A stretch of DNA of 64,000 bases from Euglena gracilis (GCA_039621445.1 CP154954.1:29888395-29952394); one strand, 5' to 3'. Shown: positions 2,992 to 64,000, numbered from the stretch's first letter. Translations and numbers: made by a program. Notes: generated from the sequence alone by a model not told the origin.

Positions 2992-24918
<21,927 letters not shown>

Positions 24919-26279
24919 CTGACTGGGCGGCTTCCAGAGCAGGAGGGTGACGTATCTTCCAGGTCCATTGCTCAGGGTTGGACCCCAAAAATGTTCTCAT
25001 TCGGCTTTGGAGCCAATCGACATTGATACTCCACAGAATTTGATGCTAACCACCTCACAACCCAAAATAATTTGTTTTGCCAGTTTGGTGATGCCTCGTT
25101 TTATGCCAAGTGCCAGTACAGGTACCCCCCCCAAGCCCAATGAACACTAAGGTGACATTCTAGACGGTCCGAACAGGGGGCGTTCATTGGGCAGGGAGTA
25201 TGATTTCTGTGTAGATAAGGATTATGGTGACAATCTAGACGGTCCGAACACCCCCTGTTCATTGGGCAAGGGCGTTCGTTGGGCATGGGGGGGGGAGGTA
25301 CTGAATAGAAGGGATGTGGAGCAGGCTTTCTCTTTTTCTTAGGCCTGGGATGAGAGATACAGAGCAGTTTTAGATTCTGAATTTTGGTGCCAGAAGGCAT
25401 TTCAACTTTTTAAAAATAGTTTTGATGCTCAGTGGACCAAGCCCTGGAGCCAGAGGCAGTCATTTTTCAATGTCCTCTTCTTTTGAAATTCCAAAATCCT
25501 CAACCTAACTTGTTACCTACCACTTTTTTCACTAGCTTTTTTTTTAAAAAGGGGGGGTGTCATTTTTGGTGCCCCAGCTTGGGCTCTAGGGCTTGTAATT
25601 TTCATATTTTTTATTCAAAAGTGCAATTTGTTCAACGCATCCGACTGCTTCTTAAAGAAAGATATTAATAAATATAAAATATATATAATATTAATAAATA
25701 AAAAATATTTATTATAAATAAGTATAAATATATATGTAATATTAATAAATATAAAAATAAAGTATTCCTGCCAGAAAAGTTAATTTGGATCAGCTACTCA
25801 AGTCGGACTGGCTATTTCGGTTCTTTTTTTGGCTGATCCCAGAAATGCTGTGTGCATGCATTTGAAACGGAATCCTAATTTTTCCATTTATGGTATTCTG
25901 CGGGATGCATTGCTGTTCCTGCCAGCTTTTCCAACACGGAACCCTCACATGTGAATGACGTGGCTCGCATTGCAGAATCTTTCCAGGCTTTGCAGGCAGA
26001 TATTAAAGATTTTAGGCTGTAGCTGTAGGCAGTCATTAAAAAACCCAACACAACAGCCCAACACAACAACGCCACACCACTCCAGCGAGCACTTTTATCA
26101 GCCTGCAGGTGAACCCCAAATATTTTTTTGTAAAAAAAAACCTAATCCCAATCAGTAATATGAACGTGGCCATTCTAATTGACTTGGTATTGTATTCTAA
26201 TCACCCCGGGAGGATTTGCAAATCTTATAACCACCCTGTATTTTTTCTCAGTTTATGCACGTAAAAGGATGGAGATAAC

Positions 26280-35200: not shown

Positions 35201-38200
35201 GGATACCCCCACCTATGGCCGATTATTTGCCAACCAGGGCCGACCAGGGCCGACCAGGGCCGACCAGGGCCGACCAGAGCACCAAAATGGGAAGTGACCA
35301 TAGGTGCCTGATCATAGCCTCCTCCATCACAGCCCCCAGCCTTCATCTAGCTCCATCCATCAAAATGTCAAAAAGACAAAATGATTTAAAAAAAATTTTG
35401 TTTTCCGTCGACCCAGCCCAGCCCAGCCCCCTCCAGCCCCCCTCCCCCCCCCCCCCTATACCCCGGGGGGTCCAGCCAGCAGCCTTTTTGCCAGCCGGAG
35501 GCTGGACCCCCCCCCCCGGGGGGGCCCTAAAGTCATCCCCTGGCCAGAAGGAGAGGAGCGCTGTGTGGACCAACTCTGGGGGCGCGAGCCCGCGGGGTCC
35601 ACTGGAGCCCCCACCGCCCCACGTCCGGGGCCCTCCCAAGGAGTGGCCGGGGCTTACGATCCATCCCCATCGTTACACCTCGGTTAAGAAATCGGCTGTG
35701 GAAGGCACCTCCCATAATCATCCTGCCAAAGGGGCATAAGTTCAAAACACTCAATGCGGAACATAATTGGCTGCATCAGTGTGGGGTCATATTTTTTGAC
35801 TTTTTTTGGCACAGTGTGAAGTGTTCGGGTTGAAAGGGGTTTTATATGTGTGGCTTCCCCAGTTGCCTCTCCCAAGCAGATACGGCGTCGTGGTTTCTTT
35901 TCTGTCCGCTTGCCATTGTCCAATTTCGCACAGCAGGATGACAATGCTCCAAGTCGCCATGCCTTGGGATCTTCGCCTCGCCACGTCGGGTGGCTGCTGG
36001 GGGGGTCTCCCATTTTCACCAACACCTGCATGCAATTTTCCCTGGTTTGCCTGGTTTGGAAGTGCGCTTAAGGGAGCGAGGGGCTCTGCCCAGGCTTCTG
36101 TTTAAGGAAAGTCGCACCCCCCTGGAGGGGCGCCTGCTATGGGCAGGCACCAGGGCTGTATTTTAGTCGGGTGCCGACCCCACCCCAGGGGGGGGGGGGC
36201 CTGCCTGGACAGGCACTCCAAGGCACTCCCAATCTGACCCCCCCCGGGGGGTACCCCCGGGCCGGGGTGGGGGGGTAGGGCACACGGCCAAAAGTGCCCT
36301 GGCACAGACCCCGGCGCCGAAGGAGCCAAAAATGGCGTATTTTCACAGGAATGCGCCTGGGCACAGGCCGAAATCCGACCCCCCCCAGGGGGGGGGGGTG
36401 CCTGCCTGGGCAGGCACTCACAGGCACTCCGGATCCCCCCCCGGGGGTTGATACAAAAAACGGCCTGGGGCAGGCACCCCAAAGCACAAGGCACCCCCAG
36501 GGGTTGGTAAGAAGAAGCCTGGCTCTGCTCTCTGTGGGGACCCTGCTTCCCACGATGCGTGCGTCTCCAAGTGTCAGACGGGAGCCACAAATCAAAACCC
36601 TTGCGTGAGCATCCCTGGGGAACTGCAACAGAAACGACCGGCTTCCGGCCCAACCCTTCGCGCACCTTAGCCCCCGGCAAATAATTAGGTCTATTTTCCA
36701 TATTGATGCATCATCTATTATATTATCATACATTATATTATATGCTAATTCATGTCGTATACATATATATATATATATGTATGTTACATCATTTATATTA
36801 TTGTTTATATTTGTATTATTGTTTATGTTTATGTTTATATGTTTGTGTTATTTATGTTATGTTATATTTATATTTATGTTTATATTATTATTTTATGTTT
36901 ATGTTTGTATTTGTATTGTTTATATTTATATTATAATTTGTTTATATTATTGTTTGTTTAATTTTTGAATTCAATTATAATTTATTCTATTATCCCCCCC
37001 CAGCACACCAGGTGTTGACGGGGGCGTCTGAGTCGCCGGCCCGAGCCCCGGCCCTGCCCCACCGTACCGGCTCCAGCGCGGGGGGACGCCCCGGCGCCGG
37101 TACGAGCTGGTGGTGCTGGCGGACGCCGGGCCCCGGGCTCGGCTGGCTGCCCTGGCGCAGCTGTTGGCCGGCAGGGCGGCGGTGGACCCCCCCCCGGCAC
37201 AAATGGCACATTTTCTGAGCATTTGCTTTTGCGATGGTCTCCGGAGTGTTCGTCAATCTTGGTCGCAGCAGTTCTTGGTCCAGCTCTTGCAGTTTGTCAA
37301 GGCACGCCCATGTGTTTATGGTCTTCCTGCACACGTTTTGCAATGACTCTTAGTCTTGTTAGTTTCGACTTCGCTGGGATTTTTTTTAAAAAAAATTCAT
37401 ATGTGATTTGCCTGTGATTTTTTTAATTTCACCCCAGAAAAGGATTTTTTCCATCCTTTTGCCAATCTTTTAATTTTCCCTGCATGGTACGTTTGGGGTG
37501 TCCACCTTCTCACTCATCGCCTCATTATGGCTGGTGGAAGCGAGATTCTCGTTTGCCTTGCGTGCCACCATTCCATACCCCTGGGGACTGCCGCACTCAT
37601 CCCCCCCCCCCCCGGCCCATTTCCCCAGTCCAGCCACCGCCCTCCCGGGACGGGCTGCTGGACAGCGCGTTCCGCATGGCGTGGTACGCCCGGTCCGCCG
37701 CCGTCCACGCCCTCCTGCTGGCCGACGTGCAGGGCCGGGGCTGCCACTGGTTCCAGGCCACGAGGGCGGCTGGCTCCGTGGAGGACCGGTGTGGCCCCGC
37801 GGCAGCCATGCCGATGCCGCCGCACGCACGTTTTGGACGCGGCACCCAACGGTGAATGAATCAACAGTTGCCTCACACTGCAGCATGGGTTTACAAAAAA
37901 AATTACGACGATGATGACATGTGAGAAAAGTTTGACCTTTACTGGAACAGCAAAGAGTAATAAAAATCATATGTCACCAAAATATTGAAAAATTGGAACA
38001 AATTAAACCTCAATATGGTCAATTGGTGGCCAATTAAATCTGGTGGTTTCACAAGCGTGTGTTGCGAAGCTATCTTCAATTTCTTTCATTGTTTTCAGAC
38101 ACACACATTTTAATTCACACAGCGTCAATGCGTGATTCATACACAATTTGCAATTGCAAATAATTGCAAATTGTCCATTCTTTCTCAACAGGCAGTTCGA

Positions 38201-45291: not shown

Positions 45292-48200
45292 ATGCGCCCT
45301 GATGGGCCTGCGCTGCCCCTGGCGATGCCTGGCCCCCGCGCCGGCCGCTGGCCGGGCGGCCCGCGGCACCGCGGGGCTCTCCCGCCCGCAAGGCGCCTTG
45401 GGGGGGGGGTGGGGCTGGGTGAAGCAGCCTCCCTTCCGGCAGGGGAGGTCGAAGCGAAGAGGGCAGCCGAGGAATCCGCCGCTTCGAAGTCAACAAAAAG
45501 TGTCGGCATCACTGCCGCTTCATACGTGGGAATTCCGCGATATTGTCGATTGAGTTTATCTGATGGTATTGGTATTCTTATTTGGCGTGTCGTTTCATTT
45601 CCAGTCTTTCTGTTCATCAATTTTGAAAACAGTTGGAACCAAAAAGGCCCCTTTAAATAATTTGGTCCCCCTGATCCCCCTGAGGTCGGGTCGGGTGGCC
45701 CCCTCCCAGCCAAGCCAGATCCTCAAAGAGAATTTTGTTGCTTAGAGGTGTTGGTTCTTGGGGAGATTGGCATGACCTCACCTCCATACCTCCATGGTTG
45801 GGACACGGGACAAACGAAACGAGAGCCCCCTTCCCCCAAGCCGCCCAGTGGCCTTGTCAGCATGCAAGCCTGGTGACCGTGCTGGAGCGGCCAGAATCAA
45901 ACAGCAGCTGCACTGGTCGGCTACATTTGGTGGTTTTGAGCGGCGGGCCACAATCTTATCTCAGGATGCTTATTCGCGGTGAGGTGGTGGTTATAATACC
46001 CAACACAACCACTTGTACATGCAGTTCGACGTGTGTATGGCGTGTGTGGTGTGTTTGTGTGCGAATACTCATTTCTCGTTTTCTCACAAAATCAGACCGA
46101 CTGACTGCAGTGCCATTTTCATAAAGCTGGGCGTTTTCAAAATCGAGGGTGGAGGCACAATGAGGTTTGAACACCCCCCTGCACAACACGGACACCTTTC
46201 CTCAAAGACCCCTAATTGTATGCACGTGCGCGTAAGCAACCCCAGCCGCTGAAGACACCCCTTCCATGCCAGTGCCCAGGTGCTGTGTCTGGGGACAGTG
46301 GCTGCCTCCCTGCTTCGTGTCTGTTGGCGGACGTTTCAAACGGGGTCCGCGACAGATGCGGACCAGGCGTGCCTGACGCGGACCCATCCATGCGAAACAA
46401 TGACGCCTCTCTGCCCCGGCGTCAACCCGGGCCAGAGGGTTCCTCAACCGTGCGAGTGCCCCCCCCCCCGGCAGTGTGTCCCGGCGATGTGGTCCGCCGC
46501 CCCCGACCGGGGGGCCCGCAGCGGGCAAGAGCTCCAGCCTGCAGTACCTGCGGACCCTGTTGGAGGAGAACGGCTACGCCGTGTTCCGCCGCCCCGCTGC
46601 CTCCGGGGTGGGGCCGCCCGCGCGGTCAGCTCCTCTGGAAGGAGAAGCTTCACATGACACTGGAAGCCTGGAAACGAAACTGAGAAGTCACCCCGGCTCC
46701 GAGGAATACTTTTTCCATCCTCCCCCTGGCCAGGCTGTGTGGACCATATGGATTGCGGGGGGTCGAAATCCCTACCCTGGTGGGTATGGGGGGTCCGATC
46801 ACCCTCCCGCACACCACCTTTCCGGTGTTTCTCGGGGTGCTGATATTTTCGGTTCAATTCCTTCAGCGTGCGGGAGGTTTTCCTTATGCAGGGTGGTTTG
46901 GTTCCCGCTGCCCTTAACAGCCTCTTTGTGTCGCTCCCTTTACCAAGGCTGAGTTGCATTGGGCATTCGTTTTCGGGCAATTCGGCACACGTCCATTTTC
47001 GATCCCACAAGCAACCAGTGGGCTCGTGGCGCACAGGCAGCGAGGCCGCCCATTGCACCGAGAAGGCCACCTCGTGGTCTCGCCAGGGGACTGAGTTCCC
47101 CGCCAACAACGAGGCCCTGCGTCGAGGGGAGCCCTTCGCATAGACTCGCCCAACCAAGAGCAGAGTGTTTCTCAATTCCTCCCCACCTGCACCGTTTTTT
47201 TTTATTTGCTTGTTCTGGTTCTGCTGGACGCCTCACCACCCCAGGGATTGGGGCGGGGATGGGCATTCGGCGCCAATGCACAAGTCCAGGTGGATTCCCT
47301 TCGCCTCTGCCTCAGCATGGCAACAGGGTGCCACTGGCACATTGCATCCGCCCGATTCTTGTCAGGCTCCTGTTGCGGAGGACTGCCCTCCTGCAGAGTG
47401 GTGTGGCAGCGAGAGATGTTCCATTTTTTGCGGCAACCAGGGTGGTGTGGCGGCTGGCTTCGTTGATGCGTGATGATATGGTATGCCTGGACCCCTGTCC
47501 ATATTTCCGTATGTCAGCAAGTCCCCGATATCATCATATCATGTACATCATACATTATCCCGATTTGTAGCAAAAAGATGTGAAGACAGTGCATTTTTGC
47601 GCTTGTTCCATGTATGTGTTTCCCCCGACCAATTCCTGGACCCGTCCATCTCCCCCGCCGCCGCCGTGCCCCCACTCGGAGGACAGCCTCATCCGCTACG
47701 CGGAGCAGTTCGCCCGCGCCACCGGGCGGCCCGTCGTGGTGCTGTTCGACCGCGGCCTGCTGGACCCCCGCGCGTTCATCTCCGAGGCGGAGTACGAGGC
47801 GCTGCTGCGCTCCGCCGACATGACGTGGGACGACGTTGGCAAAGGGCGGGGGCCGGGGGTGCCCCCCCTCCGACCCCCCCCCCCCGGTGGGAAGTGGTCG
47901 GGACCATTGTTGCCAGGAGGGGGTCGATGGGAGAGAGAGCACACCGTTCAGTGGAATTTTCGCACGCCCCACGGGTGATGCAAGCGATTGTATCCTTTTG
48001 GATTGGTTGTGGTGGACGTGCGCCTCCCAATTGAACATGACCAAACAATCACCTAGTCAATGGCTAACCCAGGAGGGTGACTGACTGGCTTGAGACCCCC
48101 CTCGGTCGGTAAAAAGGGGGTCGGTAAAAACAAATTTGTCCGAACGTGACTCCGCTGTGGTCCTCCGCAGAACGTCCGCCGGCCTCCGGCAGCAACCGGT

Positions 48201-50776
48201 ACTCGTGCGTCATCCACCTCGACACGGTGGCGCTGCAGTCGAAGGAGCTCTACGACCGCCTGAAGGGCACCAACGCCGCCCGCCGGGAGACTGCCGCCGG
48301 GGTTGGGGCCGTCGAGCCCCCCCCCTTCCGGACAGCACAGCAGGGTGGGCGTTTTTTTTTATGTTTTGTGACCCGGGGGTGGGTGGGTGCCCGGCTGAGC
48401 CCACCCACAGCGGAAGTCAGGCCGAGTGGGTATGCCACCGGAGGCAGGGTGTGGGTCTTTAAAAAAAAAAACCTCTGGGCGGGTGCAGTGCAGTTGGGGG
48501 GGGGGGCGACCGGACCGGAGCCTGCTGGTCTCTGCGCCAACCCCCTCCAGAGGAGGCCATCGCCCAGAACGTTGCCATCCGCACGGCGTGGGCCCATTTC
48601 CCCTACGCCCAGGCCAACAATATGCCGTACGGCCCCCGCATCAGGACCCTGCGCACCAGGTGGTGGTGCCTCAGGACCCATTGCCGATGCAGCCGGGGGG
48701 GGGGGGGATCCGTGACAGGCGTTTCCATGCCAGGCATCCCCATAGCGGGAAGCAGCAGCGCGGAGACCGAGGAGGAGGAGGGAGGAGGAGGACCCAGGAG
48801 GAGGAGGGAGCCCCGCCACACCCCGTGCCGAGGTGGCGAGAGAGCCCCTGCCGCACCAACCTCCCTCCTCAGTTGCACTAAAACTTCTTGTCTGTTTATG
48901 GCCGGCGCTATCTTCGCTTCTGCCCAGTTTGCTGCGTGGTGAGTGGCCAGGTACCGCTTACACCAGTACTCTTTTTGTTGCTCCGCCTGGCCGGGTGAGC
49001 AACTCTGGTGCAATTCCACCCCCCCCCCTGGGCAAGGACCCCGCAAGGCCCAGCCCTGCCACCCGGCCCGGAGCTGGCCTGCCCCCGTGCTGCACGTGCA
49101 GGCCACGGCGGGCCCCGTGTTGACGAAGCTGCGGGACGTCGGGGCGGCGCTGCTCGGCCACCACGGCATCGGCCAGGCGGTGTCCACCAGCCCCACGAAG
49201 GCCCGCCACATCCTGGCCCGCATCCCGGAGGCGGAGCGCCTCGCCATCCCGCGGGCAGCGCTGGGGGCCCCGCGAAGGGGCCGAAGACCAACACCCTGTT
49301 CCTGGGGGTCGGGATCTCCGGTGCAGTCTGTGTTCGCCTTCGCTTTTCGCTTTTCCTTGTTGGTGCCAGCAGGACATTTGAAACCAGTTTTTTTTGTGTG
49401 TTTCAGAGGGCTGACAATTTGATATCTGTGCAAGCCGTTCACGGACTGGCTTAGTCCGCCTGCATCCTCTGGCCTTCGCCTTGAGCAAGTTGAGGAGCAG
49501 TGTCCAGTTCCCAAGGTTGTGGTCGGGGCCATTCCAGAATCGCAGTGCCACCCCTACACTCCAACCCAGCCGGAGCCCCCACGGCAACGTCCTCCCCGCT
49601 GCAGCGGGTGGTGGTGCTCGCCAACGGGCTTTTTGACCCCCACGCCGCGCGGCCCCTGTCTGCACCCCGACCTCCATCCCATTCCACATCGCGGGGGCTG
49701 CCAACCTCTGTCCCCTCTCCTCCCCACCAAAGTTGACACTGTCGGGCTCGGCGCCGGAATTCACATTTTTGGGAACGTCGACGTGAGGGGGAGTCGTCCT
49801 GCACGACAGCCAGGGGCTGTCGAGCCGTCGTCAACTCCATCCGGCCATCGGGCGACGCGCCCTCCGTCTTCGTTTGCGCCGATGACTGGCTGACAGACGC
49901 GGGCCCCCCACCCATCTCCCCGGCCCGGCAGTGGCTGACGCCACACTCCCATGTGCATGTGTGCACACGCCGGACCGCATGTGCGTGGCACGCGAAGACT
50001 CAAGCGTGTGGACCTGCGTGTTTGCGTTGTCCCAGCCAGTGAATGGATTTGAACGGATGTGCAGCCAGCCGCCGGCGCTTCGCAAGGGTCTTCCCATCCA
50101 CCCGTGAGTCCCACCCAGCTCCAAAGCAGGGAGAATATTTCACATACAGACAGAGGGACCACCCAAGCGCTAAGGTGTGTTGCAATCAGGTTTTCCTGTC
50201 GTAACTTTTTTTGGTGGGGATTGCCTTCTTGATCCGTCAGACCCCCTGGTTCGCTTGCAAGGTCCTTCGGGACTCAATCTGCAGCAGGGATCCAACACCG
50301 ATTCTCCCCCAGCCCAACAGTTCCAGCCTCTCCCGGGCAGGGTGGTCCGCCGGGATGGGAGAGGCCAAAAAAAAACACATTTTGTTGACGTTTTGGGCGA
50401 ATGGGTGACAGTCCAAGGATGCCAGAAATCACTTTTTATCCCGAAGTTGACCCTTTTTTTTTGATTTCCTTAAGGGCCGCCGAAGGCTCCCAGGGTTGGT
50501 ACCGGCCACTTTTGCTGCATGCTTGGCCCGTTTCAAAGTGTGAATGTGGCAGTCTTCGCGCCGTATTTGCGGTTGTTCTCCGTTTTCAAGTGCCCTGTGC
50601 CCCCGGATGGCACGTCGTGAAGCCTCCGCGGCCACCCTGACCGCGCACCTGTTTAGGTGGGGGGGGGCGTCCCCCCCCACCCCCCCCCTCCTGGCCCGCA
50701 GGGGGGGGTCCGGACCACCCCCCCCCACCTGTCCTTATATCGAACCCTGGGCGTGGCCCAACACCAATCCCAATTA

Positions 50777-50807
<31 letters not shown>

Positions 50808-51485
50808 CACATTTGAGAGCTTGTCAGGGGTCCCCAGTACTTGCAACCTGTCAGATGAGGGGGGAAGTGGGTTTTGGTGGGTGGCTGGGGGCAGGGCGGG
50901 TGTGATCTGGGGCCCCTTCGGCCAGTGTCGGGTCGCCCGGCGCTGCAGCAGCTGTGGGCGGTGGGGCGGTGGCGGCCAGGCTTCTTTTTAAGTCAGCAGA
51001 CCCCCCCCCCCCCGGGGGGGGGGGGGGGGGGGGGGTGGGGGGGCCCGGGCCGGACCCCCCCCTGGGGGGGGGGGGTCCCGCGCCGGAGGCGCTGGGTATA
51101 CCTTTTCGGCGCGAAGCGCCGAAATTTTTTGGAAATTGCCTTTAGCGGGCCCGATTTTGGGGGGGGTCCCGCCCCCCCCCCCCCCCGGGGGGGGTCCCGC
51201 GCCGCCCGGGGTGGGTGGGGGGGAGCGCGCCCTCCCCCCCCCCGGGGGTCTTAAAAAGAAGCCTGGTGGCGGCACCGCTACCTCGCTGAGAATTGCCTCT
51301 TCCGCTACGCGCGCGCCGTGGCAGAGTTGACGGGGGCGGACCCGGCCCTGCTGTGCCCCAGCAGCGCCGGCCCCACGCCAGACCTCTCCCGCCCCCAGGG
51401 CGGGACTGCGCCACCACCCCAGACCCGTGCTGCGGTGTCCCATCAAATCGCTGTATTTTGGGGCATTGGAAGCCAGCGCCTTTGA
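45292..51485 (+). CDS. P-loop NTPase of the AAA_28 / NadR-Ttd14-like family, multi-exon (start and some junctions uncertain)
   Basis: Spliced motifs LVVL|TGGPAAGKSS (Walker A), EDSL...VVVLFDRGLLD, K|NRYSCVIHLDTVA, NAARRETA|EEAIAQN...AWAHFPY|VLHV. These match the conserved motif order of this family as I recall it. Confidence 0.8.
45938..46504 (+). other. Non-conventional intron splitting the Walker A motif
   Basis: GAG-CGGCGGGCCACA ... TGTGGTCCGCCG-CCCCC, 12-bp stem with one G-U pair. Restores VVL|TGGPAAGKS. Confidence 0.85.
47844..48193 (+). other. Non-conventional intron
   Basis: GGG-CGGGGGCCGG ... CCGGCCTCCG-GCAGC. Restores VGK|NRYSCVIHL. Confidence 0.8.
48296..48549 (+). other. Non-conventional or intermediate intron
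   Basis: GCC-GGGGTTGG ... CCAACCCC-CTCCA, 8-bp stem. Restores RRETA|EEAIAQN. Confidence 0.75.
48607..49086 (+). other. Non-conventional intron
   Basis: GCC-CAGGCCA ... TGGCCTG-CCCCC. Restores AHFPY|VLHVQA. Confidence 0.8.
50977..51265. mobile_element. Young MITE inserted in an apparent exon; predicted intron 50974-51270
   Basis: Perfect 16-bp TIR caggcttctttttaag / cttaaaaagaagcctg. Perfect TSD gtggcggc (50969-50976, 51266-51273). Confidence 0.92.
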
Positions 51486-52399
51486 GGAGGTTGCGCAGGC
51501 CCCACCCCCTAACTTAATTGAAGTGCGGGCGTGCTTTGGGCATCGGAAGCGTGCGGCTTTGTATTGGCACTAAGCCTGTAGCGGCTCTGCGTTTCCATTG
51601 GGGGATGTCAGCATAAATTCAACAATGTGTATCCAGAGGCAAAGAATTGACTCTGTGTTGTTGGACCCCAACACAGAGACGGTTCTTTGCATGTGGATAC
51701 ATGTTGATGATTTTGCCTCTAGTTGAGTCTGCACCCCTCAGAAATGAATGGGGCTCACCCCCACCCCTCTGGTTGTCACTGTCTCGCATTGTGTCCAACT
51801 TGCCACCACAACTATTTGGGGAGGACGTGGGTTTGTGATGTTGCGGATTCTGCTTTTTAAGCTCTCATCGATGCCTTTCCAGATGTCGACAAAAGAAACC
51901 ACAACCGCCACCAAGACAAAGTGCCAAAAGTCTGATTTTTTAGATGTTCTGATTAGAAGCCACATGAAGGATTTCTTCTGCTATTTTTCTGTTGATTTGT
52001 GCTTTTCAGCATCATTGTTCGGTATTCTTTAAACGGGTGATATCATTTTTGTGTGATTTATCTCTTGAGAACATCAATTCACCAATTTTGTATTGAAGAA
52101 TAATTTCATCAGAATTTCTGCCAAAAGGTGGTTGGTGGTTCTGGCTCAAGGTGGTTTGTCCCACCCTGACAGCGTCCTCAGTGACCTTGGGCTTTCGCTG
52201 GAAGATTTTGGGCTGGGGCAGTGCTCAAGGAGTTTCCTTCTCGGCTTTCAATTGTCCTTTGAGAAAAAAGTGTGAGAGACCCCCAAGTCACCTTTCGGTA
52301 TTGTCCAAGACACACCGTGTCGTTGAGACACCCCCTGTGTCAACAATTTTCTGGAAATCCACCTGAGGTTTTTTTATTTAATTGCGGTGGTGTTGGCAC

Positions 52400-55300
52400 C
52401 CCCCCCCATATCAACGACCCATTCCCTGAAAATTGGCGTGTCTTGGACAAGGTGGAAGAGGCACCACTTTGGAATTTAGGCCACAAGAACCCAATTTGGC
52501 GTCCCGGTCTGCGTGTTTCCACTTTTGCGGAGTTGTGCCGACTGCCCAAACGGAATGGCAATGATGCTTCGATTCCAGGAAGAGCGGCATGATCAGCATT
52601 CGGAAACGTCCGATCCCTTTGTAATACACGTGTCATTCGCCCAAGCCCGAATTATGGTCAAAGGGATCAACGTGATGCATCTTGGCCGTCTCCGAAGGCA
52701 CCTCTGCCCAAACGTGTGTCCTTTCGTCCATGCAGTGCCTGTGTGCATTCCGTGTTGCATTGGACGGCGAACCCACAGTTCTGCACAGCGGCTGGGCGGT
52801 GGAGCACTGGCCCATTCCCCGGCCTGCCCGGTATGACCTCTGCGCCGTGGTGGGCAACCCGGCCTGTGCCAGCAGCTCCCAGACCCGACCATGTGGCCGC
52901 CTGTGGAGGGAATACACTGGCATTTCCGATGTTCTTTCGTCGGGGGGCGGAATTTGCCCCCTGAATAATGACGGACTATTCGGGGAGTTTTTTGATGTAT
53001 TCGATGAGAAGGGTGGAGGTTTGTTGGGTTTCAAAATTCCAGGCTTCTTTTTTAGGAAATGCGCACCCTCCCCCCCCCTCCGGGGGGCTATGGGCAGGCG
53101 GGGGGGGGGGGGAGGGTGTTTTCGACCCCCGAGGTCCCAGCGGGGGGGGGGGGGTAGGATTTTGGGGTGGGTGGTGCAATCCGAAGGCACCGGGGCCCGG
53201 AAATGGGCCATTTTCAAAGGATAATTGGCTAGGTCAACAGGCACCGGGGGCCGAAACCGACCCCCCCCCCCTGGGGTGCCTGCTATGGGCAGGCACCCCA
53301 GAGCGCAAGGCACCCCCCTCCCCCCCCCCGGGTTGGTAAAAAGAAGCCTGTTCCATTCACAACGGGGGTTTTGGCCCTTTTTTGGGGGAAAATTCGCGTC
53401 TCCCAGAGTTGAAACCCAGAGGTTTGAACTTTTTTTCAAGCCTAGTGCACAGCCTAAAAAAGCATCAAAATTGGGCCTGTTCCCTGGGTCACAACATGGA
53501 CAAATGATGCAGGTCCCTCTCTTTTGGTGGCAATTTTTTCCAGTCAGGAGGGGACCCCGGAGGTGTCCTCTTCCCTCGAGCCAGGAGGGGGGGTCTGGTC
53601 CATTTTTTTTAAGTGTGTTGTAAAATGGCTAGCCAGTGGACCCGACCCCCTCGGGGTCCACTGGCCAGCCATAACAAGCAATAACCTTGCTGGGAGGAGG
53701 GGAGGGGGTCGTGGGCAGTTGTCAATCAGGAGGAGGTGGGGCGGGGTTGTGCCCAGACAAAGTAATCTGTGGACCGATGGCTTCAGTCGGCCGCTGCCAG
53801 CAGTTCGATGCCCAGCGAGCGTTCTTCCAGTCGGCAGGGGTCCTGTGCCTCAACGTGGACGGTTGATTAGGCCGCGCAACCTGCAGGGAGCGGGATGCTT
53901 GGGGAAAATCCAAACAAAAAGTGGGCGCCGAAAAATCTGTGAAAATGCCCATGTGCTAAAATTTGTACGTCTTTGGGGGACCAACAAGCGATGTGCTGGT
54001 TTGCCCAGCGGTGTGGGTGATTGCCTGTGCCGGATTGTTGAGCGTTGCGTTCGCGTGGGTGGGACCCCGTTGGGGTACCCCAACCAAGGAAATTCTGCGT
54101 CTTGGTCCCATTTTCTCCAAGTGAACGGGTATTTGCGGGTGAATGGCAAAGGGATTAATTTCCATTTTTTCGACCCACACCCGCCGTTTGCGCACTCCTG
54201 TGCCTTTTTCGGGACATTCTGGAAGAGTAGCGCTCTTTCCTGTCCGTATCGCATCTTTCGCGCATCCTGTATGCTATGCTGTCCTCTCCCTATCACCTTT
54301 CTCTGACCACCCAAACAAATTTTTTCCAACCTTTTATCCAGTTATGCATGACGACATATCCATCGATGAGGGCTGTGCCATAACTCCTATTTCTGTCTTT
54401 CTTAGTTGATTTTTTGGGGTTTGCTGGAATTGTTTTGTGTCTTTGCCAACCAGAAATGTGCCCTCGGCCCCTGGAGTCCCTAAAGCAGAGGCACGTTTGT
54501 GAGAAATCGGGCCTTCCTTGCACAGGACTGTCCCAAGATCGGACCTACTGGCGATTGTTTTTTTTTTAAGCGGTCCATTCTCACTTCTTTTTCACGCTCA
54601 CTAAACGAGAATCTCATCAGCAAACTTCCGAGAGATTTCAATTTTGAGCCCAGACTTCAACAAATAAGAAACGCAATCTGGAGATGAAACCGGTTCAAAC
54701 GACGCACCACGCAACAGGTTGACGACCCCACAGAAACAAGAATCGAACCCCCTCGAAGAAAAACCCTGGGGCAGGACGCTGCGATTGAACCGTCCCCCCG
54801 TAGCTAGCTACACCGAGGACGGGGTGCCTCACCGAAACCGACATAGGAAGGTTGAGAGGGGCGAGGAGTGCATAGCGCAAGCCGCTGCTTGCCTGTGGCT
54901 GGGCTGCGCCCGCACTGTCCTTCACGCTGGTTCATGTGGTGGGGGGGCGGCTGGGGTCCTCGATCAGGCTGGCTGCTGGCCTCCTCTCCGCCAGGGTTGG
55001 AACCACTGTCCCGTCAGTTTGTGTTTTATCTGAGTCAATTTCAATTGGTTCTTGTGCTCCAGGGGCCTGATTTTGTTGGTTGTCAGGACGATCCGGTGTC
55101 CAAGGTACGTCAATGTCTGTGCTGGGTCGTTCATTTTCTTTTCCAAATCAGCCTGATCACACACTTTATCAGTTGTTCGATGAGGGAAGCTGCCCTCAAC
55201 CTGGTGGATTATGATGTCTTCCCCAGCAGAAGAAAGTCGTCCGCATACCACACATGCTGTATGTTTTTCTGGTTCAGCGAGGCACTCAGTGGTTTTGTCA

Positions 55301-58437: not shown

Positions 58438-59478
58438 TTAGGAGGTCCCGCTTAGTGCCGCCTCGCCGGAGTTGGCTGACGATGCTGCTCCGACTTGGCG
58501 ACGTGGCTTCTTGTCCCTGGGGGGTGTCCCCCCCCTCCCGCCCCCCTGGCCCCCACTCTCTGACCGAGGGCTTTTGAACACAAATTTTCTTTTACGGGTG
58601 GGGGGGTCGGGCTCACAAGGTCTTTGTGCTTCGCCCTCGGTGTCCCTTCCTCCCTGGTCGGTTTTCCTCGAGGGAGTACGAGACACCTCGGGCTCCGCAC
58701 TTTGCCCTTGTGAGGCCAGATTGTGCACTGAAATTAGGGGGGCCAGGGCATTTTCTAGGGCACCTTGGGCACCAAGTCTTTGGTAATGGGTTGTAAAAGC
58801 TTCCACCCCCCTCCACTGACCAATTTCACAAACTTCCTGGGCAGAAAGGCCCAATTTTTTGAGTAAACCAACTCCTGCCCCTCTGGTGGAGTGGGCCCCC
58901 CACACCTGAGGGGGCACCCCATGTTTGGCCAAAAATTCTTTAGTGATGGAAGCAATGGTGTCTGCACCTATGGGCTTAAAGGGGGGTTTTAGTGAAATCA
59001 GAAGGGGCCCCCCAGGTCTTACGAATGACCTTGTTGCTGCAACATAAGACATCATCAAATGAAATGGGCTTATTTTGGAGCATTGTGGAATGGACACAAC
59101 TCTTTCCCACTTATGGAATTTCTGGCCTTTACGCCTGATTTTGATGTAGGGCGCCTTGCCCAACACACTGGTGGTTCGTTTGATCCTCTCCAAATCTGAG
59201 CTTCTGTATAAACAGAGGATTCGTGAGCAAAAAATAAGTTGTGTGCGCAATGTACAAATATCAGTGGGAAAGGGGGCTCGGGCCAGCCCCAGGAGGATTG
59301 GGAGGGGATCCCAAAAAGCACCATATTTTTCCAGATTCTGGTTCCAGAGTCTCTTGTAAGGTGCTAACATGGTGTGGAATCTCAGTCCACCAAACCCAGG
59401 AATCAAAAGCATTGCACTGTAGGCATTACGTGCCTGGGACTTGGAAAATTGAAACAATTGTATCAAAGCGTCAGCCAC
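58438..59478 (-). CDS. Tyrosine recombinase of the DIRS element
   Basis: Catalytic set R (LYRSSDL), K (RRKG), HxxR (AHSTRG), W (GQW), Y (THYQR). Confidence 0.92.
   Translation of the reverse strand: MADALIQLFQFSKSQARNAYSAMLLIPGFGGLRFHTMLAPYKRLWNQNLEKYGAFWDPLPILLGLARAPFPTDICTLRTQLIFCSRILCLYRSSDLERIKRTTSVLGKAPYIKIRRKGQKFHKWERVVSIPQCSKISPFHLMMSYVAATRSFVRPGGPLLISLKPPFKPIGADTIASITKEFLAKHGVPPQVWGAHSTRGAGVGLLKKLGLSAQEVCEIGQWRGVEAFTTHYQRLGAQGALENALAPLISVHNLASQGQSAEPEVSRTPSRKTDQGGRDTEGEAQRPCEPDPPTRKRKFVFKSPRSESGGQGGGRGGTPPRDKKPRRQVGAASSANSGEAALSGTS
58612..58718. repeat. DIRS internal complementary region (ICR)
   Basis: 58612-58681 is the reverse complement of 58317-58386. 58681-58718 is the reverse complement of 62887-62924. 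Confidence 0.92.
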
Positions 59479-59494
59479 TTGGTCAGTTGTGGCT

Positions 59495-61747
59495 TCAGGG
59501 GGGTACCCCCATTTTTTCCAAGATTACCCATAAAAGCGTAAAAGCGCTTTGGTAACGCTTTAAGCTGGGGTTTCTCCCCAGGAAATCGTCAATGGTTTTA
59601 TTTTGAATTTGTTTCCCCTCCATGATTTGCCTGAGCAAATCATGCAAAGGAGGGGCCACCTGGGGGGTGGCATTTTTTCCCCCCTGCAGTTTTTGAACAT
59701 GCCCATGTAGGGGGTGATTTTCAGGCAGGGGGTCCCTGGTACTTTCATCTTTATTAATTGGGGCCACCATGTGGCTGAATCCCAAAAGGGGGTGACCATC
59801 AAAACTTTGGTCTGGGGAAACATTCTCAATCGTGGGAGAAATTTCTGAATGATTGACCAAGGGGGGTTTGCATAAAGATCCCCCATGTTGTCCAGGGGAC
59901 ATTGGAGGGCATCCACTGCCCTGGCCTCCCAGTGGGGCCATCTGGCCACAAAATTGGACAGTTTTTTGTTGCCAGGGGAGGCAAATAAATCTGTTTCCAA
60001 ATTTATGAAATCTTTGAAATGCTGCCTTAGCCATTGAAAGAGCTGGGGGTCCAGTGAGTAATCCCCCCTGTCTGACTCCCACCTGCTTATGGGGTCTGCT
60101 AAGCACTCCTGTGAAGGAACCCATTTCACTTGTAGATTTAAATTGTTTTCCATGCACCATTTGAAAAACGGCCTTAGAAGGCTGTTGAAAGGGTCTTTTC
60201 TGCCCCCCCCTTTTGTCAGGTAATAATAAATTACCTGATTGTCTACTGAAAGGGACACCGTTTCCCCTGGCCTGCTTAGACTTTTCACTGTGCTGATGGC
60301 TGCACGTAATTCTTTTACATTGATATGTAAAATGGAGTTTTCTCTCCAAAATTCTTGGACAATTTCTCCAGTACGAATGTCTAGCCCCCCCCAGGCATGG
60401 GTGCTGCTGTCTGAGTGCAACTCCCTGGTTGCATTTTGGGGGAAGGGTCTGCCCCCCCAGGTGTCCAGTAGAATTTTTATTTCCTTTAATTGGGCCTTGA
60501 TTTCCTGGGAAATGGGGTGTTTTGAGTCCCAGGGGGCTGTGGACTTTGCCACCAAAAAATTTGCCAGGGTGTCTGTAAAAGCCCTTAAAAAGGGCAGGGC
60601 CATTAGATTGCATCTTATTTGACCCAAAATGGCAGCCAATTGCCTTTTTGACATGTATTCTTTTTTCACGATTTTTCCCAGCTCCTTTTTTATAGTTTTG
60701 ACTTTCTGGGGGGGCACCTGTAGCTTTCCTTCCTGGAAGTTCAGTTGAAAACCCAGATGGGTTACTACTTGGGTGGGCTGGAGGGTGGACTTTTTCACAT
60801 TGATTTTGAACCCAGAATCCAGCAAATCTTTGACAATTGTGTTCAGGTGATTTTGTAAATTGTTTTGTGTGGGGGCCACCAGCAAAATGTCGTCCAGGTA
60901 AACAAACACCTGGATGCCCCTTTTTCTCCACAGCTTTTCGAAAGTTTTCATGACTGACATGAAAATTTGGGGCATTACATTTAGCCCAAAGCAGCCTGTC
61001 TGAAATTCCCAGGTCTGCCCCCCCACCTGATGTCTCAAAAAAGGTCTTAGGCCTGGGCTCACTGGAATATGAAAATAGGCATCCTTTAAATCTATTTTTG
61101 CTGCCCAGTGGCCTTTTTCCAAAACTGGAAAAATGTGTTGGATATGATCCAGCTTGAAAGGTTTTACTTGGAACTGCTGATTTAATTCTCTGCAGTCGCT
61201 GATCATTCTCCATTTGGTTGTTCCCCCTTCTGGTTTCGAAATTAGAAACCATGGGATTAAATGCTGGGTTTCTGAATCCCAAACTCGTTTTATTGACCCA
61301 GTTTTTTCGTAATCCAACAGGATTTTTTCTGCCTGGTTCAGGTCCAGATTGGCTCTGGGTTTTGGGTGGGTGGACAATTTTGGGGGATTTACCCAGGGGG
61401 GTTGAATTCCATTTTTGATCAATTGACATGTTGCTGGGGTGGCATTTTTTGTCCACCATTTTAGACTTTTCTGAAGTCTCTGGTACAGGGGGGTGTCTCC
61501 CCATTTTTCCTCCATGGAATTTATTTTCCAAATTAGATGATTTTTGGGGTGCTGGGTGGGGGGTGTTGGACACTGCACCCCTAGGGATTGAGCATTCTGC
61601 AAGGGTTGCTGGGGGGGTGTGCATGCTCTTCTCACAGGCTCTCTGGTCCTCCACTTTGTCATTGGTGTTGTCATTTGACATACCACAGGGGCCCCTTTTT
61701 GGGTATCCCCCTTGTTTTGACTTGCCCCTGCCATGGGCATTGAACAA
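59495..61747 (-). CDS. 750-aa ORF overlapping pol in another frame; probably the N-terminal extension of the YR ORF
   Basis: Stop-free for 2.25 kb. Its end (SLKRYQSAFTLLW) resembles the YR N-terminal core-binding region and joins the YR ORF by a +1 shift. Confidence 0.6.
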   Translation of the reverse strand: MFNAHGRGKSKQGGYPKRGPCGMSNDNTNDKVEDQRACEKSMHTPPATLAECSIPRGAVSNTPHPAPQKSSNLENKFHGGKMGRHPPVPETSEKSKMVDKKCHPSNMSIDQKWNSTPLGKSPKIVHPPKTQSQSGPEPGRKNPVGLRKNWVNKTSLGFRNPAFNPMVSNFETRRGNNQMENDQRLQRIKSAVPSKTFQAGSYPTHFSSFGKRPLGSKNRFKGCLFSYSSEPRPKTFFETSGGGADLGISDRLLWAKCNAPNFHVSHENFRKAVEKKGHPGVCLPGRHFAGGPHTKQFTKSPEHNCQRFAGFWVQNQCEKVHPPAHPSSNPSGFSTELPGRKATGAPPESQNYKKGAGKNREKRIHVKKAIGCHFGSNKMQSNGPALFKGFYRHPGKFFGGKVHSPLGLKTPHFPGNQGPIKGNKNSTGHLGGQTLPPKCNQGVALRQQHPCLGGARHSYWRNCPRILERKLHFTYQCKRITCSHQHSEKSKQARGNGVPFSRQSGNLLLPDKRGGQKRPFQQPSKAVFQMVHGKQFKSTSEMGSFTGVLSRPHKQVGVRQGGLLTGPPALSMAKAAFQRFHKFGNRFICLPWQQKTVQFCGQMAPLGGQGSGCPPMSPGQHGGSLCKPPLVNHSEISPTIENVSPDQSFDGHPLLGFSHMVAPINKDESTRDPLPENHPLHGHVQKLQGGKNATPQVAPPLHDLLRQIMEGKQIQNKTIDDFLGRNPSLKRYQSAFTLLWVILEKMGVPP

Positions 61748-62676
61748 GAAATGTGAGGGGGGGTTGCCCCCTTGTCCTCCACTGCCCCTGTGGGGGCATC
61801 CTCCTGGGGCTGCTGTAGTTGATGTATATATAAGGTTTGCACCTTAGCTTCTGGGGGGCCATTTCTGGTCCACCCCTTTGGCCCCCATGGCCTTGTTGAC
61901 GCATTTGGCCTCCCTGGCCTGATAAATGCTGGCCTCCATGGCCCTGTGAAAACTGGCCGCCCTGGCCCTGTGAAAATTGGCCGCCCTGGCCTTGTGAAAA
62001 CTGGCCACCATGGCCTTGCACTTCTTGGCCACCATGGCCGTGCACATGAAATTGAACAGGATTCTGGCCCATATGGCCTTGGTCTCCCCTCCATGGGGCT
62101 GTTCTTGACCTTGGTCTCCAGCTCCAATGGAAATCTGGGGGGGCTGCTGTGCCCCCCCTGCTTCCCCTTGGGAGGGGTTGTTGTGTTAGAAAAATTGGGG
62201 GGATTTGACAGACCTTTCCTCCCCCTTCCTGTGGGGAGATGCTTGTGGAATTGGCCTCCATGGCCACCACCTTGTCCTTGATTCCATCTCCTGGCAGCTG
62301 GTTGGGCTTGTGGGACATGCCCCTGGAATCCTTTGGGTTTCTGTTGTCCCATCTGGCTTGATTTTGGGGCCCCAATGCCCAGATGTTTCTGCCCGTATTG
62401 GGCTGGGGGTTCTTTCCTCGTTCTGGTCCTTCTGACCACTGTGGTCCACAGTCCGTGGCCGTCACTGGGTGGGGGTTTTTTCTGGGAATTTTTTGATGAA
62501 GGGATCTGGGGGGAAGGGACGGCCACGGTTCGCCACGTTCTGTCCGCATCTCCAGTTTCTCCAGCTGCTGCGGCGACTGCTGCTCCAGGTAGTCCACGTC
62601 GAGTGTTTGATGCCAATTTCTTCTCCACAGCATTGTTCATTGAAGTCAGATTTGAAATTGATAATTGGCTTGTCAA
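59560..62676 (-). CDS. DIRS pol: reverse transcriptase, RNase H and adenine-methyltransferase-like domain
   Basis: KIDLKDAYFHI, FGLNVMP, YLDD. RNase H: SDSS...HINVKEL...DNQ...ADPISR. MT-like: DLFASPGN...ANPPW. Confidence 0.95.
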   Translation of the reverse strand: MTSQLSISNLTSMNNAVEKKLASNTRRGLPGAAVAAAAGETGDADRTWRTVAVPSPQIPSSKNSQKKPPPSDGHGLWTTVVRRTRTRKEPPAQYGQKHLGIGAPKSSQMGQQKPKGFQGHVPQAQPAARRWNQGQGGGHGGQFHKHLPTGRGRKGLSNPPNFSNTTTPPKGKQGGHSSPPRFPLELETKVKNSPMEGRPRPYGPESCSISCARPWWPRSARPWWPVFTRPGRPIFTGPGRPVFTGPWRPAFIRPGRPNASTRPWGPKGWTRNGPPEAKVQTLYIHQLQQPQEDAPTGAVEDKGATPPHISCSMPMAGASQNKGDTQKGAPVVCQMTTPMTKWRTREPVRRACTPPQQPLQNAQSLGVQCPTPPTQHPKNHLIWKINSMEEKWGDTPLYQRLQKSLKWWTKNATPATCQLIKNGIQPPWVNPPKLSTHPKPRANLDLNQAEKILLDYEKTGSIKRVWDSETQHLIPWFLISKPEGGTTKWRMISDCRELNQQFQVKPFKLDHIQHIFPVLEKGHWAAKIDLKDAYFHIPVSPGLRPFLRHQVGGQTWEFQTGCFGLNVMPQIFMSVMKTFEKLWRKRGIQVFVYLDDILLVAPTQNNLQNHLNTIVKDLLDSGFKINVKKSTLQPTQVVTHLGFQLNFQEGKLQVPPQKVKTIKKELGKIVKKEYMSKRQLAAILGQIRCNLMALPFLRAFTDTLANFLVAKSTAPWDSKHPISQEIKAQLKEIKILLDTWGGRPFPQNATRELHSDSSTHAWGGLDIRTGEIVQEFWRENSILHINVKELRAAISTVKSLSRPGETVSLSVDNQVIYYYLTKGGGRKDPFNSLLRPFFKWCMENNLNLQVKWVPSQECLADPISRWESDRGDYSLDPQLFQWLRQHFKDFINLETDLFASPGNKKLSNFVARWPHWEARAVDALQCPLDNMGDLYANPPWSIIQKFLPRLRMFPQTKVLMVTPFWDSATWWPQLIKMKVPGTPCLKITPYMGMFKNCRGEKMPPPRWPLLCMICSGKSWRGNKFKIKPLTISWGETPA
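61671..62633 (-). CDS. gag-like ORF1 of the DIRS element
   Basis: First ORF after the left ITR; GQGGQFSQ repeats and a basic C-terminus. Assigned by position. Confidence 0.65.
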   Translation of the reverse strand: MLWRRNWHQTLDVDYLEQQSPQQLEKLEMRTERGEPWPSLPPRSLHQKIPRKNPHPVTATDCGPQWSEGPERGKNPQPNTGRNIWALGPQNQARWDNRNPKDSRGMSHKPNQLPGDGIKDKVVAMEANSTSISPQEGGGKVCQIPPIFLTQQPLPRGSRGGTAAPPDFHWSWRPRSRTAPWRGDQGHMGQNPVQFHVHGHGGQEVQGHGGQFSQGQGGQFSQGQGGQFSQGHGGQHLSGQGGQMRQQGHGGQRGGPEMAPQKLRCKPYIYINYSSPRRMPPQGQWRTRGQPPLTFLVQCPWQGQVKTRGIPKKGPLWYVK

Positions 62677-64000
62677 TTGACACTCGTCAGGTTCGTGTCT
62701 TTCTGGATATTCTTATTCTGTTGACTTCTCCTCTTGGTTCTCCTTCGTTCGAGACTCTGTTCCTTTCTTCTGGGTGTCGAAGGGCAAATTAAGAATCAGC
62801 CAACTCCGGCGAAAAAAGGCACTAAGCGGGACCTCCTAACCCAACGCACCCAAACAATCCAAACAACACCGCCGGCGAGCAAGGCATGGCCTCACAAGGG
62901 CAAAGTGCGGAGCCCGAGGTGTCTGGATGGCATTGATGGCAAAACATTATGCTTATTTTTTGTTTCAAAAGGTTTTCTTTGCACACGCAGCAGCACACCA
63001 CAACAAGGGTGCACCCATTTGGCCCACCAGTGGATGAGCCGAAGACAATTTCGCGAAAGCGTTTATCTTACAAACAATTGGGTGGAGGTTGCAAGGCGGA
63101 CCATTGCAGTCGAAAAGCGGGTGGCCATTTAAAATGTCAATCCAGGGTTTTTCATAAAAATGTGTTGGACCACATTATTGCTCACTGACCCCCCGGGGGG
63201 CAGGGCAGAACGGGAAGGCCTGGTGGGGGGGGGTCGACCCCCGACCCGGCCCGGGAGGTGGGGGGGGGGGGGGGGGGGGTCGACCCACCCACCACAGCAT
63301 TTTCACCGATTTCGGGAAAATGTGCTACTTTTTAGGGTGGGGAGGGGGTGAAAAAAACGAAGGTCAAAAAAAGTGGACAAAATTTTGGCACAATCAAATT
63401 TTACTGACATTTTTTCTCGTTGATATTTTTTGGACTTTCAATGGCATTTTTTGCTTCAAAAACCTCTCAAAATCAACATTTTGAGAAAATGTTGATTTTT
63501 TTGGAAGGTGTGAAAAAATGGGGTTTCGGGTGGTTTTTGCCCGGAAAAAATTTTTGGGTCCAAAAATTGGTGTTCCCGGAAATACGGGAAGGGGTGGTGG
63601 GGGGGGGGGTGGTCGACCCCCCCACCCACCACCCTGACTGTTCGGCCAATTCCCGTTCTGCCCTGCCCGGGGGGGGAAGGGGGTCACTTTCCACCATCCA
63701 CTTCCTGCATTCTCCCCCCCCCACTTCCTGGCTACTCGGGACAAAATGCATCAATATCAATCAATTTTTGGGACCAAAAGCCCCAAAAAATTCCAGCACC
63801 TTTGGCGCAAGAAGGGGCAGAGTTTGGGAGAGTGGGTGGGGCATGGGGGGTCTGCCACCAAAACAAAACCACAAAAAAAACCAGCCACCCTCCCCCCCCC
63901 CCGCTTACTTGGGCTGCGGGAATTGCCAACAAAAAGTTTGACTAGACGGACCGGACTTAGATGTCGAAATTGGTAGCAAAAATTCTGCCGAATTTTTGGG

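Follow-up and report, generated by a model that had tools for sequence, protein, structure and literature searches.

A MITE with an intact target duplication in a coding exon of Euglena gracilis: a candidate nascent nonconventional intron

Host gene and its surroundings

The window, by which we mean the whole stretch of DNA analyzed here, comprises 64,000 nucleotides of the Euglena gracilis genome (GCA_039621445.1, CP154954.1:29888395-29952394). It contains an expressed gene for an AAA_28 P-loop NTPase, and a MITE lies within one of the coding exons of that gene. The MITE carries inverted repeats at its termini (TIRs) and is flanked by a target duplication (TSD). The positions of all of these features are given in Table 1.

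Four sequence runs were aligned on positions 46000-53500. X1 and X2 belong to 19 small contig sets guessed to be RNA, X21 is one of four raw RNA-Seq runs bearing the same species label (about 5% of its reads were used), and X20 is the single large DNA-like set, in which 0.82 of the words are present. The joints between exons come from one RNA contig each in X1 (depth 157.8) and X2 (depth 107.6) and from raw X21 reads, and two further joints come from loose contig ends. When the mapped exons are joined, a single frame stays open up to a stop in the last piece. A GT/GC-AG register is absent from all 14 introns, so the host gene is built wholly of nonconventional introns. The natural nonconventional introns removed from its transcript range from 180 to 1017 nt and resemble the MITE in their G/C-rich content.

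Table 1. Coordinates of the features at the locus, counted from the first letter of the window
Feature	Position	Strand	Remarks
Host gene, AAA_28 P-loop NTPase, mapped part	45802-53880	+	15 exon pieces, 14 non-GT-AG introns; stop codon in last piece
Upstream part of interrupted exon	50936-50976	+	start slidable 50930-50936; joint 49918>50936
Downstream part of interrupted exon	51274-51390	+	end slidable to 51392; joint 51390>52172
RNA joints	46585>47050; 47120>47396; 47433>47673; 47843>48194		
RNA joints	48295>48550; 48605>49086; 49257>49584; 49643>49824		
RNA joints	49918>50936; 50967>51265; 51390>52172; 52210>52821		
Further joints	45937>46505; 52886>53802		from loose contig ends
MITE	50977-51265	+	289 bp, G and C homopolymer-rich; no protein match; sequence read directly; 8-bp flank match 8/8
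Left TSD GTGGCGGC	50969-50976	+	3/5 register: first 5 nt exonic, last 3 nt (GGC) = donor spacer
Left 16-bp TIR CAGGCTTCTTTTTAAG	50977-50992	+	CAG = 5' motif of splicing code
Right 16-bp TIR CTTAAAAAGAAGCCTG	51250-51265	+	exact reverse complement of left TIR; ends CTG
Right TSD GTGGCGGC	51266-51273	+	first 5 nt (GTGGC) = acceptor spacer
Right TSD, sixth base G	51271	+	would be the purine opening the downstream exon
Predicted 297-nt nonconventional intron	50974-51270	+	N3/N5 register, C↓G...C↓G (↓, border of exon and intron); RNA joint and code fit
Family element	21623-22044		8-bp flank match 8/8
Family element	36091-36521		8-bp flank match 7/8
Family element	53040-53350		8-bp flank match 4/8; decayed; nested inside intron 52887-53801

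The protein product is represented by P0001 (EukProt EG_transcript_8976, 445 aa), which was found by translation of exon 47673-47843 and matches AAA_28 with an E value of 2.5e-12. We take the "EG_transcript" naming to denote the Euglena gracilis transcriptome. The spliced window translation is identical to P0001 at 412 of 417 aligned residues; the first 28 or so residues of the protein map further upstream (about 45.3 kb), beyond the RNA-mapped part. The differences fall in exons 47673-47843, 48194-48295 and 52821-52886 (P0001 versus window: 130 H/Q, 134 T/A, 166 T/A, 196 N/D, 417 V/A). P0002, a genomic ORF derived from Logan, pairs Q/A with T at residue 166, and the gene has at least three exon haplotypes in public data. 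At position 48573, in exon 48550-48605, 10 of 26 X21 reads carry C and the window, X1, X2 and X20 carry T; the C is an expressed exonic variant specific to the X21 culture.

The interrupted coding exon is exon 11 (50936-51390 minus the element), into which the element has inserted behind codon 350 of 445. The original prediction, made from the sequence alone, had read the flanks of the element as coding, and the RNA joints and P0001 both agree. It had placed the borders of the exon differently. The proposed CAG acceptor at 50925 is rejected, as the RNA joins 49918 to 50936 (slidable by 6) across a nonconventional intron of 1017 nt, and the exon ends at 51390 (slidable by 2), not at 51485. The unspliced frame opens at 50859 and stops, as had been foreseen, at a TAA (51252-51254) within the right TIR.

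The claim that ten other introns here obey a rule of 3-nt and 5-nt spacers holds only in part. Among the 13 other introns of the gene, 4 fit the strict published code and 7 can take up the 3/5 register with no fewer than 5 bp of helix. We searched the window for repeats that end where any of these 13 introns begins or ends and found none; the only repeats are internal ones, in introns 49919-50935 and 52887-53801. Decayed 8-bp duplications were sought at the 7 older introns in the 3/5 register, where 25 of 56 positions matched versus 20.7 expected, a non-significant excess (permutation p about 0.12).

Two introns of the gene hold further high-copy sequence. Within intron 48606-49085, a stretch at about 48880-49015 is a very high-copy expressed repeat: the X20 bin 48761-49011 has a depth of 186,514 versus about 50 for single-copy sequence, and in RNA contigs the repeat reaches 5437 in X1 versus 158 for the gene. 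Nearly all of its copies have A, not T, at 48911. It has no Rfam match, and a permissive Rfam scan of this high-copy stretch of intron 6 gave chance-level hits only (E 0.5-1). In intron 49919-50935, a G/C-homopolymer palindromic block at 50655-50730 resembles the interior of the MITE, lacks the TIRs of the family and has an X20 depth of 216,622; it may be a decayed or partial family copy. The block is followed by a (GT)n run at 50777-50807.

Elsewhere in the window, an uninterrupted 1050-aa ORF on the minus strand (59563-62712) has an RVT_1 domain (E 4e-23). It is followed on the same strand by a 361-aa ORF (58441-59523) with no Pfam match, and the two together are probably a fairly intact retrotransposon. 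Long low-complexity runs at 24110-24996 (poly-A/V/N/C-type translations, simple repeats) give spuriously high coding scores. Scans of the whole window for tRNAs and Rfam families found no match.

The element, its family and the splicing code

The sequence from 50969 to 51273, read directly, runs GTGGCGGC, CAGGCTTCTTTTTAAG, the interior of the element, CTTAAAAAGAAGCCTG and GTGGCGGC again. The two TIRs are complementary at 16 of 16 positions and the TSD is perfect over 8 bp. The young MITE with an 8-bp TSD of the original prediction is supported. The element plus one TSD amounts to 297 nt, or 3 x 99. Both the anatomy of the element and its exonic position are confirmed.

The element belongs to a real yet heterogeneous MITE family that makes 8-bp duplications, as judged from an excess of TIRs, matching 8-bp flanks and interiors of low similarity. 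The TIR motif has 15 matches with up to 3 mismatches in the window versus 0.74 expected, and none of 100 shuffles reached 15. When left and right matches with up to 4 mismatches and 80-1500 bp apart were paired over the whole window, 7 candidate pairs resulted, 4 of which are credible elements of 289-431 bp (Table 1). The other 3 pairs match at 2 of 8 flank positions and carry 4 mismatches in each TIR. The interiors of the family copies are rich in G/C homopolymers and are only 60-72% similar to one another. The copy in the exon is the least decayed of those in the window. The family is present in very many copies, judging from an X20 depth of 324,372 in bin 51020-51270 versus about 40-50 in single-copy bins, a figure that the homopolymers inflate.

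The exonic element has the properties of a MITE: TIRs, a fixed-length TSD that is seen in several copies, a short, non-coding and multi-copy sequence, and a polymorphism between filled and empty sites (described below). ORFs running into the element have no Pfam match, and raw ORFs around the site have sub-threshold P-loop matches only. No transposase was found in the two long window ORFs scanned, one of which is the reverse transcriptase. An 8-bp target duplication is characteristic of hAT elements, and the element makes one; its termini correspond only approximately to the hAT terminal consensus.

Only one of the four paired copies in the window, 50977-51265, is exonic, and there is no second instance in favor of the family acting as introns. 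The other three show no coding flanks; in particular, no spanning frame and no high-scoring adjacent coding segment was found at 21623-22044 or 36091-36521 in a weak scan that was trained on one gene. The copies at 21623-22044 and 36091-36521 have G at position 6 of the duplication, as does the exonic copy, and 53040-53350 has T. This sample is too small to separate target preference from selection for spliceability.

The cis requirements of nonconventional splicing have been defined by knock-in experiments in an E. gracilis exon, with introns that were natural, mutated or entirely artificial (Nomura et al. 2025, PNAS, PMC12501133). The code reported there is 5'-N3CDG-/-CH'GN5-6↓R(exon)-3', with a donor spacer of exactly 3 nt, an acceptor spacer that is best at 5 nt, a purine required as the first base of the downstream exon, and pairing required beyond CAG/CTG. 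Five wholly artificial 50-bp sequences carrying the features of the code were tried, and all five were spliced in E. gracilis (PMC12501133).

Judged by its sequence, the element carries every cis feature that was shown to be necessary in that code. Together with the TSD it reads GGC-CAG ... CTG-GTGGC↓G in register (shift 6), with an N3-CDG 5' end, a CH'G-N5-6 3' end and a purine (G at 51271) at the start of the downstream exon. CAG is followed by 13 further paired bases. The terminal helix therefore extends well past CAG/CTG, to 16 bp, or 18 bp with flanking pairs, and the minimum-energy and centroid folds of 50964-51280 both contain it (z = -4.6). None of the 10 possible registers of the element is GT/GC-AG. 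The 3-nt/5-nt register, 50974-51270, that had been proposed from the sequence alone matches the experimentally defined code (PMC12501133).

The geometry has a simple consequence. The CAG and CTG are the termini of the element, and the two spacers, 3 and 5 nt, add up to 8, the length of the TSD. Excision in the 3/5 register would thus leave exactly one TSD and restore the mRNA that existed before the insertion.

A presence/absence polymorphism and its bearing on splicing

The mRNA observed for the gene lacks the element. The joint 50967>51265, which skips exactly 297 nt, is present in the X1 contig, the X2 contig and 7 raw X21 reads with 7 starts. Nine letters, namely the TSD and one G, fit on either side of the joint, which makes it compatible with any register from 50968-51264 to 50977-51273. 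P0001 crosses the site of the element uninterrupted (ALQQLWAVGRWRHRYLAENCLFRYARAVAELTGAD), and RNA and protein agree on the frame ...AVGRWR↓HRYLAEN.... The original prediction had called for mRNA lacking exactly the element and one TSD, in this frame, and such mRNA is what X1, X2, X21 and P0001 contain. Among the reads and contigs listed, none from RNA crosses the filled junction, and no back-joined (circular) form of the element is among the 15 joints listed from cDNA RNA-Seq and contigs. A protein search with the ORF 51255-51485 for genomic-type ORFs, with the site either empty or filled, returned no candidate.

The same joint occurs in DNA. In run X20 it is found in one contig at a depth of 40.5, with 30 letters on each side, 9 of them ambiguous. 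X20 behaves as genomic DNA, with a depth of about 40-60 over introns and exons alike, and in the stretch that was aligned the 11 remaining intron joints are all absent from it. A form that lacks the 297 nt and is accompanied by none of the 11 splice joints means that an empty-site allele exists. The site is filled in the window and empty in X20, so the insertion is a presence/absence polymorphism; it is shown to be very young and still segregating.

The empty site lies on a haplotype of its own. An X20 flank contig (record 20, depth 39.3) starts exactly at 51265 and differs from the window over 51265-53111 by 18 substitutions and 25 gap letters, including insertions of 19 nt behind 51409 and of 5 nt behind 52951. 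The 19-nt insertion accounts for 39.3 of the 51.9 of X20 depth at that point and the window-like form for about 12.6. The window-like haplotype thus represents about one copy in four and the alternative haplotype about three in four. The depth of the empty joint, 40.5, matches that of the alternative haplotype. The start of the flank contig at 51265 and the 30-letter sides of the empty contig fit a path in a 31-mer graph, which suggests that X20 holds both alleles and that its graph forks into a filled and an empty path. An uninterrupted haplotype coexists in the DNA of the species and, most simply, in the same sample.

All 18 substitutions of record 20 lie outside exons. With the differences in 51265-53111 being intronic throughout, the exons are strongly conserved between haplotypes relative to the introns, and a mature mRNA carries no marker near the site of the allele from which it came. 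Low-depth intronic RNA contigs do have letters of the alternative haplotype, in X1 at 5 of 6 sites in 51745-52023 and in X2 at 46624. The empty alleles alone are sufficient to explain mRNA without the element, and the RNA data therefore neither establish nor exclude splicing of the element. The 297-nt deletion that was to be looked for in RNA is present there, but the same form is present in DNA and the allele of origin is indistinguishable. The original statement that the element is apparently acting as a perfectly spliceable intron is for this reason unsupported as worded, and the interpretation as a whole is partly supported.

We favor the view that a MITE recently inserted into a coding exon of an expressed AAA_28 NTPase gene is a nascent, spliceable nonconventional intron, and we would put the probability of this at roughly 0.55. 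In pre-mRNA from the insertion allele, the two 16-bp inverted repeats would pair and bring the site 3 nt 5' of CAG next to the site 5 nt 3' of CTG. This is the geometry that the nonconventional-intron machinery of Euglena requires. Excision would leave one copy of the duplication and restore the pre-insertion mRNA, and the insertion would by that route become a nascent nonconventional intron. We infer from the fit to the code that RNA of the element-carrying allele is itself processed in this manner.

The main competitor, which we consider less likely than a nascent intron yet well worth taking seriously, is that the insertion is a polymorphic disruption of the exon that is never spliced. Transcripts of this null allele would meet the TAA in the right TIR and be degraded, the mRNA would derive from the haplotypes without the insertion, whose copies maintain gene function, and the match to the code would reflect how the ends of a transposon look and have no function at the exonic copy. 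Several observations accord with this. The empty form is found in X20 DNA near the single-copy depth of about 40-50 and without the splice joints, the window-like haplotype is in the minority at 51409, the exons offer no haplotype marker, and no other family copy paired in the window is exonic. The lack of RNA that retains the element is also what nonsense-mediated decay would produce. Unspliced or mis-spliced transcripts of nonconventional introns with premature stops went undetected in the knock-in experiments and were attributed to such decay (PMC12501133), which makes the absence of retained-element RNA uninformative. Against a null allele stand the presence of all the cis features needed, which jointly sufficed for artificial introns in E. 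gracilis (PMC12501133), and the removal from the same transcript of natural nonconventional introns of comparable composition. In the gapC gene of E. agilis, moreover, a nonconventional intron bordered by 8-nt repeats is known as strain-specific (PMC4770533).

An error of assembly is very improbable. A mis-join of repeat-containing reads, with no real chromosome carrying the element at this site, could be imagined for an element from a very high-copy family, and no X20 contig crosses the filled junction among those listed. However, a perfect 8-bp duplication of the exact target flanks the element, which is a signature of transposition and is unexpected from a mis-join. The X20 flank contig halts at 51265 and the empty contig has 30 letters per side, as expected for a branching graph. 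Least probable of all is a somatic or recent germ-line excision, in which all copies were once filled and a transposase restored the empty DNA site precisely: it would account for the coexistence of filled and empty states in DNA, but the empty form is the majority, its divergence from the window (18 substitutions and several indels within 1.8 kb) marks an older separate lineage and no recent derivative, and cut-and-paste excision usually leaves footprints and rarely restores a single target copy.

If the element is indeed a nascent nonconventional intron, a more general proposal can be made, though only tentatively. E. gracilis would harbor a currently active family of MITEs with 8-bp TSDs, each insertion of which is born as a nonconventional intron. 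The code N3-CAG ... CTG-N5↓purine would then be merely the TIR of a transposon plus its target duplication, and the excision machinery would have evolved to recognize transposon ends in RNA. The locus would represent an intron gain caught in the act of segregating, with the filled and the empty allele both still present.

Relation to known introns and transposons

Nonconventional introns account for 71.8% of all introns in a Euglena genome (PMC12501133). The idea that they originate from MITEs has stood in print as a hypothesis since 2013, drawn from inverted and border repeats alone (Milanowski et al. 2014, PMC3935182); as that work presents it, no euglenid transposon had been identified at the time. 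A 2024 review labels the CAG/CTG motifs "TIR" and the border repeats "TSD" (PMC11282704), and a MITE origin is also raised in the discussion of Nomura et al. (PMC12501133). In our literature search, no paper named a transposon family as a source of euglenid nonconventional introns. The Sci Data genome paper (PMC11252322) makes no mention of MITE, hAT, DNA transposon, heterozygosity, ploidy or tetraploid.

To this hypothesis the locus adds a concrete family, a copy with intact ends and TSD, a coding exon, the exact register of the code and a natural empty allele that serves as an internal control. Given this combination, an allele-specific measurement of RNA could either confirm the hypothesis or show that null alleles can match the code. 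The agreement between the summed donor and acceptor spacers and the length of the duplication offers a mechanistic rationale for the unusual 3/5 spacing. Nature has provided here a good test of a long-standing hypothesis, short of a demonstration.

The candidate resembles the introns of Nomura et al. (PMC12501133) in its non-GT-AG borders, in CAG at +4..+6 and CTG at -8..-6, in spacers of 3 and 5 nt, in the downstream purine and in the terminal helix. It differs from them as an identifiable member of a multi-copy transposon family that has an intact 8-bp TSD and is present in only some haplotypes, and its splicing is predicted. Excision as circular RNA is on record for introns of tubA (as cited by PMC11282704 and PMC12501133).

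Among transposons, the hAT elements and the Merlin families reported from E. gracilis (PMC8101967) share with the element an 8-bp duplication and short TIRs. The Merlin families make 8-9-bp duplications and have ends that begin with 5'-GG (PMC8101967). The duplication length agrees with Merlin, but the termini do not, as the element starts with CAGG.

A precedent is intron 4 of gapC in E. agilis ACOI 323, a nonconventional intron that is absent from five other strains and is bordered by direct repeats of eight nucleotides (Milanowski et al. 2016, PMC4770533). The authors read these repeats as the result of double-strand-break repair, and their account of this intron names no transposon family (PMC4770533). 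The element described here, in contrast, has 16-bp TIRs and sister copies with 8-bp duplications.

Functionally, the closest system to the candidate intron is the introner. Introners are known from Micromonas, Aureococcus, dinoflagellates and others (Huff et al. 2016, Gozashti et al. 2022, as reviewed in PMC11282704). They differ from the element in being removed by the spliceosome through GT-AG or related sites that are supplied in part by the duplication (PMC11282704), whereas the element has no GT/GC-AG register, and they are defined by many intronic sister copies, whereas the element family has one exonic copy in the window. The likeness lies in the outcome: introners are non-autonomous DNA transposons that insert into exons and are removed together with one copy of the TSD, leaving a scarless mRNA (PMC11282704), and the Euglena element would do the same by way of the nonconventional code.
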